Positions 5,234 through 12,055 of a stretch of DNA of 35,302 nt are shown in pieces. Source of the DNA: an uncultured Dehalococcoidia bacterium (GTDB lineage Bacteria; Chloroflexota; Dehalococcoidia; Lucifugimonadales; UBA3495); NCBI GenBank assembly GCA_950072105.1, contig CATMOE010000039.1, forward strand, positions 1 to 35,302, written 5' to 3'. The position numbers were made by a program, and so were the translations under genes. How positions within the stretch are numbered: the stretch's first letter is position 1; each line of letters starts with the position of its first letter. The notes under the pieces are model-generated. The model did not search any database, was not told the origin of the DNA, and saw only the letters and a program-made list of their open reading frames with translations.

Positions 5234-6127
5234 TTATCCGCTAGGGTTGGTTCTGGGATGGCGTTGGGCGAAGTCGTCGGCGATCTCATCGAACTTACAG
5301 AACCTAACTCCGGGATGGGACATCAAGTAGGCGGCCAGCCGCTCCAACATAAGTAATACCTGCGGCCGTCCGCTCACGTCTGGATGTATCGTGATGGGGA
5401 AAACCGCTTCATCGTACTCCCGGTAGATGTAGTCGAACTGGTCCCGCCACATCTGTTCTATGTCTCTGGGATTCACAAATCCGTGACTGTTGGGCGATTT
5501 CTTGATGAACATCATCGGAGGCAGATCGTCCAAGTACCAATTGGCGGGTATCTCGACCAAGTCGGTTTCTTGGCCCCTGACCAGGCCTTGCATCCAATCG
5601 CCGGCGGCTAGCGAAAAATCAATCTTCGTCCAACGGTCGCCGACTCTGACGTAGTAGCACTCAAAGTCCTTGTGCATCAGGCTGTGGTCGTACTTGATAC
5701 CGTGTTTCAGCAACAACTCATTTGTGACGTGGCTGAACTCCCACCAAGGGGCGACGTATCCGGTGGGCCGCTTCCCGGATATCTTGGTAATCAGGTCGAT
5801 GCACTTCACCAGGACCGCTTCTTCCTGCTCGGGAGACATGTCGATCGGGTTTTCATGGGAGTACCCATGCATCCCAATCTCGTGTCCGGCCTCGACTATC
5901 ATCGCCGTTTCTTTGGGGAATGTTTCGATGGAGTGGCCGGGGATGAACCAGGTGGTCTTTATTCCCAGCTTGTCGAACAGTTTAATCAGGCGAGGGGTGC
6001 CAACTTCCCCGGCGAATATGCCACGGGAGATATCATCGGGTGAGTTTTCACCGCCATACGACCCCAGCCACCCGGCGACGGCGTCCAAGTCTACCCCGAA
6101 GGCGCACAATATCTGCTTTTCGGCCAT
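5234..6127 (-). CDS. Polysaccharide deacetylase family protein (PgdA/PuuE-like)
   Basis: [43 protein letters not shown]. Confidence 0.9.
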
Positions 6128-6469
6128 AACTACTTACCCCATGATCCGATTTAGCCGGCTGCACCGATGGAGACATGCCCGGCGATGACGGAGGAATGGT
6201 ACGTCGGAGTGGACGGCTTGTCCACCGGACTAGGCGGTTACCACGCCCGTTAATATGTAGGCAACAATGCACACGTTGATTCCTCTACGATTAGTTACTC
6301 GAAAACAGAAATCCTATGTGCGACAGGCTCGGCATGGTGTAAAATATAGTCATATAGGTATTGAACAAGATGGTAATTACATAGCCAACAGCATATAAAT
6401 TAGGAAGCAACGGTCTACCCGACGGGCCACGGGTAGCATGAGCCAGCTTAGTAGCAGCGGAGTGGGGCT

Positions 6470-9400
6470 ATGGTCAAGCGTGAAATCGAAGTTGATGAGT
6501 ATGGGTCGTGGATCTGGAAGGACGATAACGCCCGCGAGCCCAACTTGGTGCTCTTTATCCACGGCTACACCGGACACCCCGAAGCCACGTGGGCTAAGTT
6601 CCCATCTTTGATTCGGCAAGTTGATCAAGGATTCGACAGCGGTTTCGATGTGGCCTCGTTCGGCTATGAGTCTCATATGGTGCGCAACTCCCAGGGGATA
6701 GCTGATATTGCTGGGCGGCTGCTGACCTTTATAGACGCGCACGCTCACGAAAACAAGAACGTATTTATCATCGCGCATAGTTTAGGTGGATTGGTGACCC
6801 GCCGCTTTTTGATCGAAACGTTCAACAACTTGGCTCAGCGAGAGTTCTTCAAGAAGATACGAGATGTTCATTTTATAGGCGTGCCCCACATGGGAGCTTC
6901 GAGAGCACCGAGAGCTCTGCAAGGTATCAGAAAGATCAATCCCCTGGCTGCGGAACTACGTCGGAACAGTCCAGTATTATTAGATATCCTGCGGGCTTGG
7001 GATACCGTTGTTAAGTCATGCTCCCGGGGTAAGATCGCTCTGCCGAAAATCTTCAACTATGTCGGAAATCATGACTGGCTTGCTCCTATGAAGCAGGTCA
7101 TCGGTGAGTTCAACGCCCAGGAAAGCGTCCGGATAGTTGCCGGCAGTCATATTTCCATCGCAAAACCTCACAATAGTGAAAATGACTTATATAAGCTGGT
7201 CACACGCAACATTCTTTCCAGCGCCGAGACTCTAGCTACCACAGGCGATCTTCCACCCGCACCCTACCATGCCCGTCTGGTAGTGAAAGCGGACGACGAT
7301 GGTTACAACGCTCAGTGGGTGGAGCCGGAGGAGACCGACTCGTTCTCATTGATCCTGCCTCTGACCGCGGAAGACATGGCCGAGCTGCGCTGGTACTTGG
7401 AGACCTATCTCCAATTCCCCGGAGCCGGAGATTACGTCAGAGCCCACGGCATCGAAGCCAAGTTCGAATCCTGGGGCCAAAACCTATCCGAGGCTATCTT
7501 TGTTAACCGCGCCGGGCGCAAGATCCGAGATGGTCTAATGAAGGCGGCGAACGCACACAGTTCCAGCCTGCTGACCATCGGCGCATCCGACCCCAGCGTT
7601 CTGGGACAGCCCTGGGAGATGATGCGTGATGAAACCGCGCCACTCACATTCCAGGGAGTGACCATCCGCCGCCAGCTAGAGACCAGTAGTAAGGTCAACA
7701 AATTCGACATGAAACCGCCCCTCCGGGTGTTGCTAATCGTCAGCCGACCCAGCGATATCGGATTCATCGACCCTCGTAACAGCATCGCTCCCTTGCTCGA
7801 TGCTCTTGACGCCCTGCCTCCGGGCCAGGTATCCGTGGACTTTTGCGACCCGCCTACGCTGGCCGAACTGGAAGAGAGAATTTCTCAGGCGCGCAGAGAC
7901 AAACTGCCATATCACATTGTGCACTTCGATGGGCACGGCACTTACGTCCCACAGATCGGTGTGGGTGCCCTAGCATTTGAGAAGGACGACGCTACCACCG
8001 AATTGGTCACTGGTGCCCAACTTGGTGAAAAATTGGTCCGGCTTGAGGTGCCCCTGGTGCTGCTGGAGGCCTGCCGTGGCTCCGATCTTTCCGACAAGGA
8101 AATTTACGGCTCGGTGGCCCCGGCGTTGATCAAGAGCGGGGTGGGGAGCGTCATCGCCTTCAGCCATTCGGTCCACGTCGAGGCGGCCCGGCTGCTCGTG
8201 GAGCGTTTTTACCAGGCGCTGGTTGACGGCTTGACCATCGGCCAGTCCTTGGAAGAGGCCCGCGCCAAGCTCAACGCCAACCGCAAGCGTTGGCTGCACC
8301 AAGGTCCCAATCCCGAGACCATTGAACTGCAAGACTGGTTCATCCCCCAGCTTTACCAGGTGGGCGATGACCTAGCCTTGTTCCCCGGTGGACACAGCGC
8401 CGTCAGCGCAGCTACCTCACCGGTCGAAGAACCGGTCTCTGAGAATGGAACTTTAGAAGGCTTCCCGTTGCAGCCGATGTATCGTTTTCACGGTCGCGCA
8501 ATGGAGATGCTGCAGTTGGAGCGGGACTTCCGAAACTACCCCTCCGTGCTGCTCAGCGGAATGGGGGGTATGGGTAAGACCGCCCTAGCCCGGGAGGCCG
8601 CGGCCTGGTGGTTGCGTAAGGGGCGTTTCGACTCCGCCGTCTTCTGCAGCTTTGAGCAAAAAGTCGAGGCGGACCGGGTGGTCCAACTCATCGGTAAGGC
8701 CCTGGAGGGAGAGTCGTTCAGCTCTCGTCTCGCCGAGGACCAATGGGCCACCGCCGTCCGCCTCTTTCACCAGCGCAAGGTTCTGCTGGTCTGGGACAAT
8801 TTCGAGTCCACCCTGCCCATCTTCCAGAACGGCCAGCCGCCATCCACGGATAAGGAAACAACGGACGCCGTGGAGTCGCCCCTGGAGTTCGGCGCTGAAG
8901 AACGGGGCCGACTGCAGAGACTCTACCGGGAATTGACCGATGGGTCGCCGGAGGGCCGGCTTTTGGTTACTTGCCGTCCGGCAAACACCAACCTGCCCGC
9001 CATCAAAGAGTTGGCCCTGGAGGGGTTAGCCCGGCCCGACAGCCTGCACCTGCTGGCGGCAGTAACCGGCTTGAAGAACATCGCCACCGACCGGCCCGGC
9101 TGCGACCGGACGGAAATTGACGCCTTGCTGGACACCCTGGACGACCACCCCTTATCCATTCAGTTGGTGGCTCCCCATTTGGAAAAAATGACCCCAGCCC
9201 GAATCCGCTCGGAGTTCGGCACGCTGCTGAGCCGATTTGCCGACGAGAATGTCGACGAACCGCGAAACCGTTCCTTATTAGCCTCCATGGAGTTCTCCAA
9301 GACTCGGCTTAGCGAAGCCGCCCAGAAGGTGCTGCCATACCTGGCGTGGTTCGAGGGGGGTGTTTTCGAGCAGTTCCTATTGGACTTCGCCGAATTGGAA

Positions 9401-11008
9401 GCCGGAACCTGGGAGCCTATCCGGAGCGAACTGGTGGCCACGGCCCTTGTCAGTGTTGACGAGGATATCCAGATCTCAGACCCACCTTACCTCCGCTTTC
9501 ACCCGACGCTGCGCTATGCCGCTACAACCGAGCAGGTTCCCGACCGTGAAGCTGCAGAGCGGCGCTTCATAGGGGTTTACCGGAGTGTAGCAGGCGCTGC
9601 TAACCAGGCTCTGCGGGGCAACCAGCCGGCTAACGGGATGGCCCTGCTGGCCCGGGAGGAAGCCAACCTGCGGATCGCCATCGATAGAGCCTTCCGGCGC
9701 GGTGACCGTCAGGAAGGCGGAAACATGGCCGATACTCTGCGCATCTACCTGGAATCGGCGGGTAGGCTGCGAGAGCGGGATGCTCTAGTGGCCTGGGTAC
9801 GCGGCCAGTTGTCGGAGGGTGGTGAACTGGACGGGGTTACTTCCGGCTCCATCCGTCAACATGCCTGGAGCCTCCTCACCCAAGGCCACGCTGCCGAGGC
9901 AATCCAGATGGTGAAGACTTTGATCACCCGCCTGGAAACCGAAGACCTGGCCGGTGGAGCAGACCCGACCTTCCAACTTGCTGTGTCCCAAGCCTACCTG
10001 GGGCGAATCTACTACACCTCCGGTCACAATAACCTAGCCCTGGCGCCGCTGCAAATGGCGATCACCCGTTTCGAGCAATTAGGCCACGACGCCCGTGACA
10101 ACGTGTCCGCTACACTAGGTTCCCTAGCCAACGCCTACAGCAGTTTGGGCCAGCTTGATCGGGCTCTGGAGGTCGCCGAGCGAGGCCTGGCTATAAGGCA
10201 GGAACTGGGCAATCAGCGGGAAATTGCCACTGGCCTCGGGCGCACCGCCCAGATACTGATGGCGCAACAACGATACTCCGAAGCCGACGCCCGCTACACT
10301 GAAGCGTTTGAGGCCGCCGGTGACCTCGGTGTGCAAGGGAGCCTCCTACAACACCAGGGCAGTTTGCAAGACGAAATGGGTAATCTCGACCGGTCTATCG
10401 AGCTTTACAAGGAAGCCATCACCCTCTTTCAGCGGGCCACTAATCGAGGCGCTGAAATGCGTACTTGTAACCAACTCGCCACCGCCGAAAGGGCGCTTGG
10501 CCACCTGGATGCCGCCGAAGCCTGGTACGCCCGCAGCCGGGAACTGGCTAAGCAACTGAACGATAAACCTCAACTGGCAGTCGTGGCCCAAAACACCGGC
10601 ATTCTCTACCAAACCCAGGCCGAAAATGAAGGCGACCCTGTTAAGCAGGCCGTTCTTCTGTCTCGGGCGGTTGACTCTGTGGAAGAAAGTCTGGACATCA
10701 AGCTAGATATGGAGAATCAGCTCGCAGCCGCGGCGTCATACGGCCAATTGGGAATTTTGCAACGTATGCTGGGCAATCTTGGGCTGGCCGAAGAGAATGC
10801 TCGCATGTCCCTTGGGATCTATGAATCGCTCGACCTACCCAACGTATCTCTAAATTACCGTGATTTGGCTGAAATCGCGAGACAGCGAGGCGACCAAGAG
10901 GCAGCCGCTCAGTGGCAGGCCAAGTACGAGGCCAAGGAGGCGGAGTTGGAACGGCTGCGTCGGGGACAGGACCCGGACTCGGAGGCTGGTGAGGAGGCTG
11001 AACAGTAG
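6470..11008 (+). CDS. NLR-like multidomain protein: alpha/beta-hydrolase + CHAT protease + STAND NTPase + TPR repeats
   Basis: Hydrolase: FIHGYTG, AHSLGG, GVPHMG, HDW, GSHISIAKP. CHAT dyad: VHFDGHG and LEACRG. Walker A GMGGMGKT, Walker B LVWDNFE, HPLSIQL. TPR-like repeats such as LGSLANAYSSLGQLDRAL. Confidence 0.9.
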   Translation: MVKREIEVDEYGSWIWKDDNAREPNLVLFIHGYTGHPEATWAKFPSLIRQVDQGFDSGFDVASFGYESHMVRNSQGIADIAGRLLTFIDAHAHENKNVFIIAHSLGGLVTRRFLIETFNNLAQREFFKKIRDVHFIGVPHMGASRAPRALQGIRKINPLAAELRRNSPVLLDILRAWDTVVKSCSRGKIALPKIFNYVGNHDWLAPMKQVIGEFNAQESVRIVAGSHISIAKPHNSENDLYKLVTRNILSSAETLATTGDLPPAPYHARLVVKADDDGYNAQWVEPEETDSFSLILPLTAEDMAELRWYLETYLQFPGAGDYVRAHGIEAKFESWGQNLSEAIFVNRAGRKIRDGLMKAANAHSSSLLTIGASDPSVLGQPWEMMRDETAPLTFQGVTIRRQLETSSKVNKFDMKPPLRVLLIVSRPSDIGFIDPRNSIAPLLDALDALPPGQVSVDFCDPPTLAELEERISQARRDKLPYHIVHFDGHGTYVPQIGVGALAFEKDDATTELVTGAQLGEKLVRLEVPLVLLEACRGSDLSDKEIYGSVAPALIKSGVGSVIAFSHSVHVEAARLLVERFYQALVDGLTIGQSLEEARAKLNANRKRWLHQGPNPETIELQDWFIPQLYQVGDDLALFPGGHSAVSAATSPVEEPVSENGTLEGFPLQPMYRFHGRAMEMLQLERDFRNYPSVLLSGMGGMGKTALAREAAAWWLRKGRFDSAVFCSFEQKVEADRVVQLIGKALEGESFSSRLAEDQWATAVRLFHQRKVLLVWDNFESTLPIFQNGQPPSTDKETTDAVESPLEFGAEERGRLQRLYRELTDGSPEGRLLVTCRPANTNLPAIKELALEGLARPDSLHLLAAVTGLKNIATDRPGCDRTEIDALLDTLDDHPLSIQLVAPHLEKMTPARIRSEFGTLLSRFADENVDEPRNRSLLASMEFSKTRLSEAAQKVLPYLAWFEGGVFEQFLLDFAELEAGTWEPIRSELVATALVSVDEDIQISDPPYLRFHPTLRYAATTEQVPDREAAERRFIGVYRSVAGAANQALRGNQPANGMALLAREEANLRIAIDRAFRRGDRQEGGNMADTLRIYLESAGRLRERDALVAWVRGQLSEGGELDGVTSGSIRQHAWSLLTQGHAAEAIQMVKTLITRLETEDLAGGADPTFQLAVSQAYLGRIYYTSGHNNLALAPLQMAITRFEQLGHDARDNVSATLGSLANAYSSLGQLDRALEVAERGLAIRQELGNQREIATGLGRTAQILMAQQRYSEADARYTEAFEAAGDLGVQGSLLQHQGSLQDEMGNLDRSIELYKEAITLFQRATNRGAEMRTCNQLATAERALGHLDAAEAWYARSRELAKQLNDKPQLAVVAQNTGILYQTQAENEGDPVKQAVLLSRAVDSVEESLDIKLDMENQLAAAASYGQLGILQRMLGNLGLAEENARMSLGIYESLDLPNVSLNYRDLAEIARQRGDQEAAAQWQAKYEAKEAELERLRRGQDPDSEAGEEAEQ

Positions 11009-11031
11009 GTAGCAATCCGCTACCTACTGTT
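11001..11031. terminator. Perfect 13-bp hairpin, probable terminator between convergent genes
   Basis: AACAGTAGGTAGC-aatcc-GCTACCTACTGTT, overlapping the TAG at 11006-11008. Confidence 0.7.
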
Positions 11032-11071
11032 GTTGCTAGCCGCCCTCCCCGGTCGCCGTGCACGTTCCGGG

Positions 11072-12055
11072 TCAGCCCGGTATGGACAACACAGAAGATA
11101 TCTCGCTGAACTCCCGCCACTGTTTGTTCCAGGAGTTGCCGCCGTCGTTGCTGCGGTATAGGTGGCCGTAGCGGCTGCCGGCGAAGGCTATCTGGGGGTT
11201 GGCGGGCTGGACGTTTACTACCCACATGGCGCTGTTGGGCGGGTCGGAGAGGGAGAGATTCTCCCAGGTTTTGCCGGTGTCTTGGGAGCGCATCACCGTG
11301 CCGATTCTTCCGGGCGTGGTGTCGCCGATGGTTAGGAAGACGGTCTTGGGGTCGGCGGGGTGGATCGTGATTCCCCGGGGATAGGTGTAGGGAAAGACAT
11401 CTTTGATGGCAACGGCGGTCCAGGTGGCGCCGTCGTCGGTGCTAGTGAACACGTCGTTGTTGACGACGACCACCACGGTTTTGGGCGGCCCTGCCGTCAC
11501 TGCTATGTTGTGCACGTCTAGGTTAGGAATGTCCCGGCCGGCCTTTTCCCAAGTGTCTCCGCCGTCGGTGCTGTGGCGCAGGCCGTCAACCTCGACGCCC
11601 GCCCAAATGCTGCGGGGATCTGTAGGGTCGATGGCGATGGCGGTCATTTGGGGAAGGCCGATGGGGCATTCTTCGGCCACCTCCATGGGCCGCTTCTCCC
11701 AGCTATTGCCGCCATCGGTTGACCGGAACATGGCGACGGGGCTGGGCGCGCCGGTCCCGGCGAACATGATGTCAGGGTTCGTGGGGTCGATGGCCATCGC
11801 CCAAACAGAAGAGCCGCTCATCGGAGACTCTTTAGACTGCCAATTCTTACCGGCGTCGTCGCTTTGGTAGACACCCCGGTCGGTCCCGGCGTAGATGACG
11901 TTGGGCTTGGATGGGTGATTCACCAGGACCCGAATCACCGGGTTCTGGTACATCCCCTGGTTAATGGCTACCCGTTGCCATGACTCGCCATTGTCGCCGC
12001 TGCGCATGATTCCTTGGCCTGCGGTACCTACCAATATCGTCAATTCGTTCGCCAT
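11072..12055 (-). CDS. BNR/Asp-box repeat beta-propeller protein
   Basis: Multiple S-x-D-x-G-x-[ST]-W boxes (SGDNGESW, STDGGNSW, STDGGDTW, STDDGATW, SQDTGKTW, SNDGGNSW); no signal peptide evident. Confidence 0.88.
   Translation of the reverse strand: MANELTILVGTAGQGIMRSGDNGESWQRVAINQGMYQNPVIRVLVNHPSKPNVIYAGTDRGVYQSDDAGKNWQSKESPMSGSSVWAMAIDPTNPDIMFAGTGAPSPVAMFRSTDGGNSWEKRPMEVAEECPIGLPQMTAIAIDPTDPRSIWAGVEVDGLRHSTDGGDTWEKAGRDIPNLDVHNIAVTAGPPKTVVVVVNNDVFTSTDDGATWTAVAIKDVFPYTYPRGITIHPADPKTVFLTIGDTTPGRIGTVMRSQDTGKTWENLSLSDPPNSAMWVVNVQPANPQIAFAGSRYGHLYRSNDGGNSWNKQWREFSEISSVLSIPG

Follow-up and report, generated by a model that had tools for sequence, protein, structure and literature searches.

A candidate single-gene NLR-like receptor carrying a lipase-like hydrolase and a CHAT protease in tandem in a marine Chloroflexota bacterium

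Alpha/beta-hydrolases, TIR domains and CHAT proteases are each known as effectors of NLRs (10.1101/2020.01.06.895854; PMC8195603; 10.1101/2022.07.19.500537). As described in the available parts of the sources cited throughout, a separate caspase-like protease activates LcHydrolase by cutting it at two conserved R/G sites (PMC12642450), and the Lamassu effector Ec-Lipase protects through its catalytic histidine and autoactivates on overexpression (PMC12663957). Here we analyse a protein that joins a hydrolase and a CHAT protease on one STAND scaffold. It is encoded in a stretch of 35,302 nucleotides (the window) of contig CATMOE010000039.1, assembly GCA_950072105.1, from an uncultured Dehalococcoidia bacterium, a marine member of the Chloroflexota. 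We give about an even chance to the reading, drawn from sequence comparison, that this is a single-gene NLR/Avs-like anti-phage receptor in which clustering of the STAND scaffold would switch on the lipase-like hydrolase without cleavage.

Two putative effector enzymes on one NLR-like scaffold

Analysis of the open reading frames in the window gives a single frame at 6470-11008 on the forward strand, encoding 1512 amino acids, and the start methionine is shared by all nine aligned hydrolase relatives. From N- to C-terminus, Pfam assigns DUF676 (6e-8), CHAT (1e-19), NB-ARC (2e-7) and TPR_12 (3e-21), all above cut-off. The preliminary description of the window had claimed one such frame with its catalytic motifs and an NLR/Avs-like layout, and both claims hold: AHSLGG lies at residues 102-107, HDW at 201-203, GSH at 225-227, HFDGHG at nucleotide 7922 and Cys535 at nucleotide 8072, with the STAND Walker A and Walker B motifs at residues 697-704 and 772-776. 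A search of the whole protein against solved structures returned TPR matches only.

The hydrolase triad (S104, D202 and H227), which had been called intact, is invariant in 10/10 aligned hydrolases. The predicted model of residues 1-255 has an alpha/beta-hydrolase fold, with a predicted local distance difference test score (pLDDT) of 74 and a predicted template modelling score (pTM) of 0.80, and is closest to lipases and esterases (best Z score 17.0, root-mean-square deviation (rmsd) 3.2, 198 residues aligned). Judged by predicted fold and conservation, the domain has the fold, the nucleophile elbow and the Ser-Asp-His triad of an alpha/beta serine hydrolase. The CHAT dyad is likewise as previously described, with H489 conserved in 247/251 homologues and C535 in 250/254; both residues align with the His/Cys motifs of the solved chain 8tl0 (E-value 6.5e-7), which we take to be a SAVED-CHAT protein, in agreement with the PADLOC match. 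The dyad sits in the HxxGHG and LxAC motifs that, at the sequence level, mark a CHAT/caspase-like protease. In the STAND region, Lys703 (242/242) and Asp776 (239/239) are invariant and Arg836 is likewise conserved, and STAND motifs overall are conserved in 217-242 of 226-242 homologues. With NTPase motifs, a C-terminal repeat sensor and N-terminal effectors, the predicted protein has the parts that structurally define a STAND/NLR-like receptor.

The fusion is real, because one contig of run X4 covers the whole gene (6156-11144, with two substitutions) and one contig of run X12 covers 5669-8968, including the fusion seam. These contigs rule out an assembly chimera; since each of the two runs carries a flag as a possible source, no more than one of the two studies has to be independent. 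The single frame found in the window, in alleles L012 and L013, and in X4 also rules out a pair of genes, or a frameshift, at the seam.

A hydrolase grafted on a widespread core

The two halves of the protein have separate families of relatives. The CHAT-STAND-TPR core, residues 263-1500, has many relatives at 55-66% identity, distributed patchily over Chloroflexota, Pseudomonadota, Acidobacteriota, Sumerlaeota, an archaeal bin and others. Of 267 core homologues, 225 reach the beginning of the core in the alignment: 190 are uncapped and begin at about residue 263, 28 carry a TIR domain, 7 carry another domain and none carries a hydrolase. The preliminary description had proposed such a survey of N-terminal domains as a check, and it shows a slot that also holds TIR and no homologue that shares the hydrolase. 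None of the 225 homologues shows the same fusion in another species, and 2256 long candidates yielded two hydrolase-STAND proteins, both distant, in word-based searches that can miss some. On a quick tree the TIR cap accounts for three changes, at least two of them forced, and both dyad residues survive in 26/28 TIR fusions. A quick tree of 130 CHAT regions, built without bootstrap, places the CHAT of the window with P0010 and L032 and apart from the TIR rows (Shimodaira-Hasegawa-like approximate likelihood ratio test, 92), which leaves a direct swap from the TIR-fused clade unsupported. Most close homologues (P0002-P0121) end in a conserved 90-residue helical domain, sometimes doubled or replaced; the window protein is without this C-terminal tail. 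At least four tandem CHAT-STAND-TPR paralogues (L037, L039, L041) lie on one Holophagales contig.

Relatives of the hydrolase show 48-69% identity, and those nearest in sequence (53-69%) are joined directly to NB-ARC. Among its eight closest longer proteins, five are NB-ARC fusions and none has a CHAT or other protease domain, and no CHAT was found near related hydrolases in the five loci scanned, two of them short. The related loci are conflict loci, containing a split NLR whose TPR gene stands apart (L014), STAND-FGS genes (L015), a WD40 gene (L016) or an integrative element (L020), and relatives on plasmids bear the annotations NB-ARC, NACHT, ABC-three-component or TPR. The domain also matches the PADLOC LmuA profile over residues 22-250 (E-value 1e-9). 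By family membership, the hydrolase is part of a mobile conflict-effector subfamily. Across 149 further genomes of the host family, its profile found only two matches, both distant. Three distant hydrolases (L120:835-2244, P0279, P0280) are joined to a TPR-S sensor; one of them lies next to a TIR-like gene, and another has a caspase domain at its N-terminus. They are possible ligand-activated lipase systems.

GC content at third codon positions is lower in the hydrolase (0.58) than in the core (0.70; Fisher p 4e-4) or in nine window genes (0.71-0.80), and the break coincides with the fusion seam, which is clean, like the linkers of the TIR fusions. From sequence evidence, the protein is a recent chimera, a hydrolase grafted on a widespread CHAT-STAND-TPR core. 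The compositional seam, the donor families on either side of it and the presence of intact as well as broken alleles make it a naturally occurring record of how an effector is grafted on a bacterial NLR.

Proposed activation of the hydrolase and a candidate partner of the CHAT protease

In the favoured reading, the TPR region would bind a phage protein and the NTPase would then exchange nucleotide and oligomerise, as expected from STAND biology (PMC13581612). The oligomer would cluster both N-terminal enzymes, and clustering would activate the serine hydrolase with no cleavage. Most likely the hydrolase would attack membrane lipids, resulting in cell death or arrest. CHAT would dimerise on the same scaffold and either act as a second warhead that cuts host proteins or be orphaned, the latter being possible because the usual trans partner of the family, a hemolysin-fold protein described below, was not found in this genome. 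We favour clustering because relatives of the hydrolase occupy the same slot without a protease, because TIR repeatedly takes that slot, because the related Lamassu lipase effector works without a protease (PMC12663957), and because an allele with both enzymes unchanged and no scaffold is common. This allele has a stop at Arg688 (run X12, P0287, P0292 and P0200), and its hydrolase-CHAT part is unchanged on 16 contigs, which is consistent with effectors that stay silent without the STAND scaffold.

Several points weigh against this reading. The argument from the Arg688 stop presupposes that the allele is expressed. A caspase-activated hydrolase zymogen has been published (PMC12642450), and a distant hydrolase relative, P0280 (27% identity), is joined to a caspase domain. 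The complete fusion is seen in one species only, and the neutral allelic variation described below means that the chimera may never have worked. No defence genes were found beside the receptor by Pfam among the window open reading frames or by PADLOC among six neighbours. The earlier claim of a defence system stands in part: the evolutionary pattern is of the defence type, but the STAND region has no Avs match in PADLOC 2023, a library without the later Avs families (Avs7-21).

Clustering of the neighbours of 89 core loci revealed a recurrent, unannotated protein of 230 amino acids. It lies beside the receptor in 7/80 genome loci, directly upstream and on the same strand in six. Where CHAT identity is at least 54% and at least 1 kb of upstream sequence is available, 6 of 14 loci have it and the other 8 do not, three of those being cut downstream. 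L032, with which the window CHAT groups in the tree, has this partner. When 401 genomes were searched reciprocally, two matches resulted: L033 again, and a distant copy (L123:1444-2205) that immediately follows a CHAT gene of another kind. The protein has no Pfam or PADLOC match. Its predicted model (pLDDT 75) is most similar to NetF, gamma-hemolysin, leukocidins, CytK and alpha-hemolysin (Z scores 10.6-9.5, rmsd 3.3-4.2, 148-175 residues aligned), with unrelated beta-sandwiches reaching Z 9.2. A low-confidence stretch at residues 118-154 is located where a stem hairpin would fall, and a variable loop at residues 22-33 could be the protease cut site. The partner was not found in genome G000 (92% complete), and viral contigs contained one distant hydrolase, three distant cores and no hemolysin-fold partner.

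This hemolysin-fold protein is likely the native CHAT substrate of the family, as suggested by its position and predicted fold. That it is a CHAT-activated defence effector, making the family a protease-gated platform, is a tentative proposal to which we give somewhat less than an even chance. It would be a possible new protease-activated pore former of bacterial immunity, and this side finding may outweigh the main one in importance. The available parts of PMC12642450, which surveys ten effector families, do not include it among those, and a hemolysin-fold CHAT substrate was not found described in a literature search conducted mostly without subscription papers. Three inspected loci of TIR-CHAT-STAND-TPR proteins, a group of multiple origins (P0034, P0049, L036, L043, L048 and others), have no hemolysin-fold partner. 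Distant, mostly cyanobacterial core homologues (L072:6388-6843, L070:10893-11327 and 12 more loci) have a different neighbour of 140 amino acids, with two hydrophobic C-terminal helices and a weak PADLOC PDC-M35B match; it is a candidate second CHAT substrate.

The preliminary description had proposed that CHAT cuts its own chain on activation, freeing or remodelling a hydrolase that kills, so that one chain would be sensor, protease and zymogen. A precedent is LcHydrolase, which a caspase-like protease turns into an active death effector (PMC12642450); the dyad is intact, and the caspase-hydrolase-TPR-S fusion P0280 is found among distant relatives. It had also been noted that no separate substrate gene is adjacent, and we agree: Pfam detects none among the window open reading frames, nor was a trans partner found in G000. 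We nevertheless consider self-cleavage unlikely, and the proposal fares poorly against four observations. The published cuts fall at conserved R/G sites inside the fold (PMC12642450), whereas no Arg-Gly position is common to the ten hydrolases and the only RG of the window hydrolase (residue 186) is absent from its nine relatives. The linker contains a single Asp and neither Arg nor Lys, and it shares no motif with the TIR linkers. Relatives of the hydrolase are found without a nearby CHAT, and TIR takes the same slot in 28/225 homologues. The core family has a different candidate substrate in trans, and a recent graft is unlikely to suit a protease that has another candidate substrate.

Ranked next, and also improbable, is a chimera without function or in decay, a recombination product that stayed in frame and drifts neutrally. 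Allele L012 has two stops. L013 has Cys535Arg and two frameshifting deletions; the same replacement recurs in P0289, an otherwise different allele (n=2). In L019 and a contig of run X15 a repeated element interrupts the hydrolase, which is also broken in L012. This element (L019:6031-6155) has seven matches at contig ends of G000 (C8, C10, C14, C43, C54, C59, C64) and is probably an active insertion sequence. In the 90% cluster of 319 members, the 14 listed members other than the query all fall short of full length, and at least 10 of them have a lesion or a restart at Met701; these 15/319 members include some that end at contig edges, and assembly error may add lesions. Within the gene, L012 and L013 show 22 replacement or stop changes versus 4 silent ones, a neutral ratio (p 0.37), compared with 4 replacement and 23 silent changes in the flanking genes of L012, L013 and L019, most of which stem from a single diverged tract of L012. 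Of 62 substitutions, 19 hit conserved columns, as expected by chance. Against decay, the frame and all catalytic motifs are intact in the window and the X4 contig, and the seam is clean and similar to the linkers of the TIR fusions. A costly conditional defence gene is also expected to be lost under relaxed selection. In the clustering model, a gene that is costly or no longer selected would be polymorphic and often broken; the pattern is compatible with a conditional defence gene that is costly or has lapsed, and with a chimera that has never functioned.

A third alternative, again improbable, makes CHAT the true effector, which would cleave either a broad set of host or phage proteins or an unlinked substrate, with the hydrolase as accessory or passenger. 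Most homologues are indeed uncapped, the eight close loci noted above are without the hemolysin-fold partner, and E. coli can be protected by a caspase-like protease that acts alone, with no effector (PMC12642450). Recurrence of Cys535Arg in two differing alleles is what a costly protease would lead one to expect, at n=2. This sits poorly with an intact hydrolase triad, with the hydrolase being the sole effector in NB-ARC fusions, and with alleles L012 and L019, which break the hydrolase too. More doubtful still is the joint proposal that the hemolysin-fold partner is the usual output and was replaced here by a grafted lipase processed in cis by CHAT.

A non-defence signalling protein, exerting developmental or metabolic control by proteolysis like HetF-type CHAT proteases, is very improbable: the NCBIfam HetF match is weak and far under cut-off, and a CHAT-STAND-TPR paralogue in 22/23 genomes of the host family indicates that the layout can be vertical, but that paralogue lacks the His/Cys dyad in 10/10 copies examined and is only 27-30% identical, and the window gene is patchy, variable and often broken. 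Those values rule out orthology between the two. The paralogue, absent from all 16 genomes of the other families of the order, is found at about 66600-70300 (-) of G000:C5 and in L002-L010, adjoining a conserved small gene in housekeeping surroundings, and looks like a domesticated pseudo-protease NLR.

The protein is suited to testing whether two effectors on one STAND operate in parallel or in series, with the protease freeing the enzyme in the latter case, and the question bears also on the 28 TIR-CHAT-STAND proteins.

Genomic setting and comparison with described systems

The features of the gene and its site are collected in Table 1. The host is probably a SAR202-type member of the Dehalococcoidia. 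The flanking genes are metabolic. In congener G001 the flanks are separated by 268 unrelated bases, versus 4.9 kb in the window, and the gene is absent; congener G002 has a contig break at the site. In run X4 the gene is present at depth 23 and a contig of depth 88 joins 6235 to 11090 around it, although related strains or species may contribute to these depths. Because this deeper contig bypasses the gene, the site may swap cargo between strains. No convincing target-site repeats surround the insert, and 39 relatives of the host have no match to the core above 32% identity. The gene is a single insert and, in the favoured reading, was acquired horizontally. A promoter scan gave nothing beyond chance on the strand of the gene, and pieces of the gene occur at depth 2-6 in two RNA runs, a contig-level observation that does not establish transcription. 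Runs X4, X12 and X15 and allele L013 have 9 extra bases after 10309, so the window allele is without three residues of one TPR helix. The hairpin across the stop codon is, by its position, terminator-like.

Table 1. Positions of the receptor gene, its parts and its surroundings in the window, and of the 230-residue protein in other loci
Feature	Position	Strand	Basis
Whole gene, hydrolase-CHAT-STAND-TPR, 1512 aa	6470..11008	+	ORF, Pfam, one run X4 contig covers all
GGAG, ribosome-binding-site-like, 7 nt ahead of ATG	6459..6462	+	Sequence
DUF676/PGAP1-type alpha/beta-hydrolase, aa 1-253; Ser104 (6779), Asp202 (7073), His227 (7148)	6470..7228	+	Pfam, alignment, model, PADLOC LmuA 1e-9
Short Ser/Thr/Pro linker, aa 250-264, the fusion seam	7217..7261	+	Homologue alignment
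CHAT (caspase-like) protease module, aa 263-640; His489 (7934), Cys535 (8072)	7256..8389	+	Pfam, conservation, 8tl0 alignment
STAND NTPase (NB-ARC-like), approximate bounds; Walker A 8558-8581, Walker B 8783-8797, sensor Arg836, winged-helix motif ~9494	8462..9529	+	Pfam, motifs
Helical/TPR sensor region	9530..10954	+	Pfam, structure-database match, homologue alignment
Perfect 13-bp hairpin spanning the stop codon, between convergent genes	11001..11031	.	Sequence
Variable site, 4.9 kb in the window	6173..11071	.	Congener G001 and run X4 comparison
Junction with repeated element in L019 and an X15 contig	6751..6753	+	Allele alignment
Arg688 codon; stop in run X12, P0287 (16 contigs), P0292, P0200, hydrolase-CHAT alone remains	8531..8533	+	Allele comparison
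Polysaccharide deacetylase, left flank, common to congeners	5234..6127	-	Pfam, congener comparison
BNR/Vps10-repeat protein, right flank, common to congeners	11072..12055	-	Pfam, congener comparison
Copies of the 230-aa protein	L034:6266-6970, L032:6077-6775, L033:6206-6901, L047:6249-6944, L030:1006-1692, L058:2168-2857, L025:11506-12198		Locus scan

Among described systems, Avs and other bacterial NLR-like STAND receptors share the effector-NTPase-repeat layout, with swappable N-terminal effectors that include caspase-like peptidases, and horizontal spread (PMC13581612; 10.1101/2022.07.19.500537); the window protein differs in having two enzymatic domains in tandem. KrAvs12, a caspase-STAND protein with EACC1, also places a caspase-like protease ahead of a STAND sensor, but its substrate EACC1 is a separate small pore-former (PMC12642450), whereas the window has none adjacent and close homologues have the hemolysin-fold neighbour. 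The LcHydrolase-LcCaspase pair likewise combines an alpha/beta-hydrolase and a caspase-like protease in one defence-type unit, as two genes, with two conserved R/G cuts inside the fold and a protease-linked family (PMC12642450). The window protein is one chain, and the features of the LcHydrolase type, conserved Arg-Gly sites (0 among 10 hydrolases) and family-wide protease pairing (0/5 loci, 0/8 proteins), are missing; the two are set apart by description and not by sequence comparison.

Lamassu LmuA lipase presents the same Ser-Asp-His lipase-like effector on a sensing scaffold (PMC12663957), in line with the profile match. The window protein is not Lamassu: its scaffold is a STAND NLR, and neither LmuB nor LmuC was found by PADLOC in six neighbours or by Pfam in 32 other window open reading frames. 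The hydrolase-CHAT-STAND-TPR chain was not found in a literature search mostly without subscription papers or the large STAND-architecture supplements of PMC13581612. In all-in-one bacterial and fungal NLRs, a SesB alpha/beta-hydrolase, TIR or CHAT each serves singly as an effector, and the tandem of hydrolase and CHAT is not described in the available parts of that work (10.1101/2020.01.06.895854).

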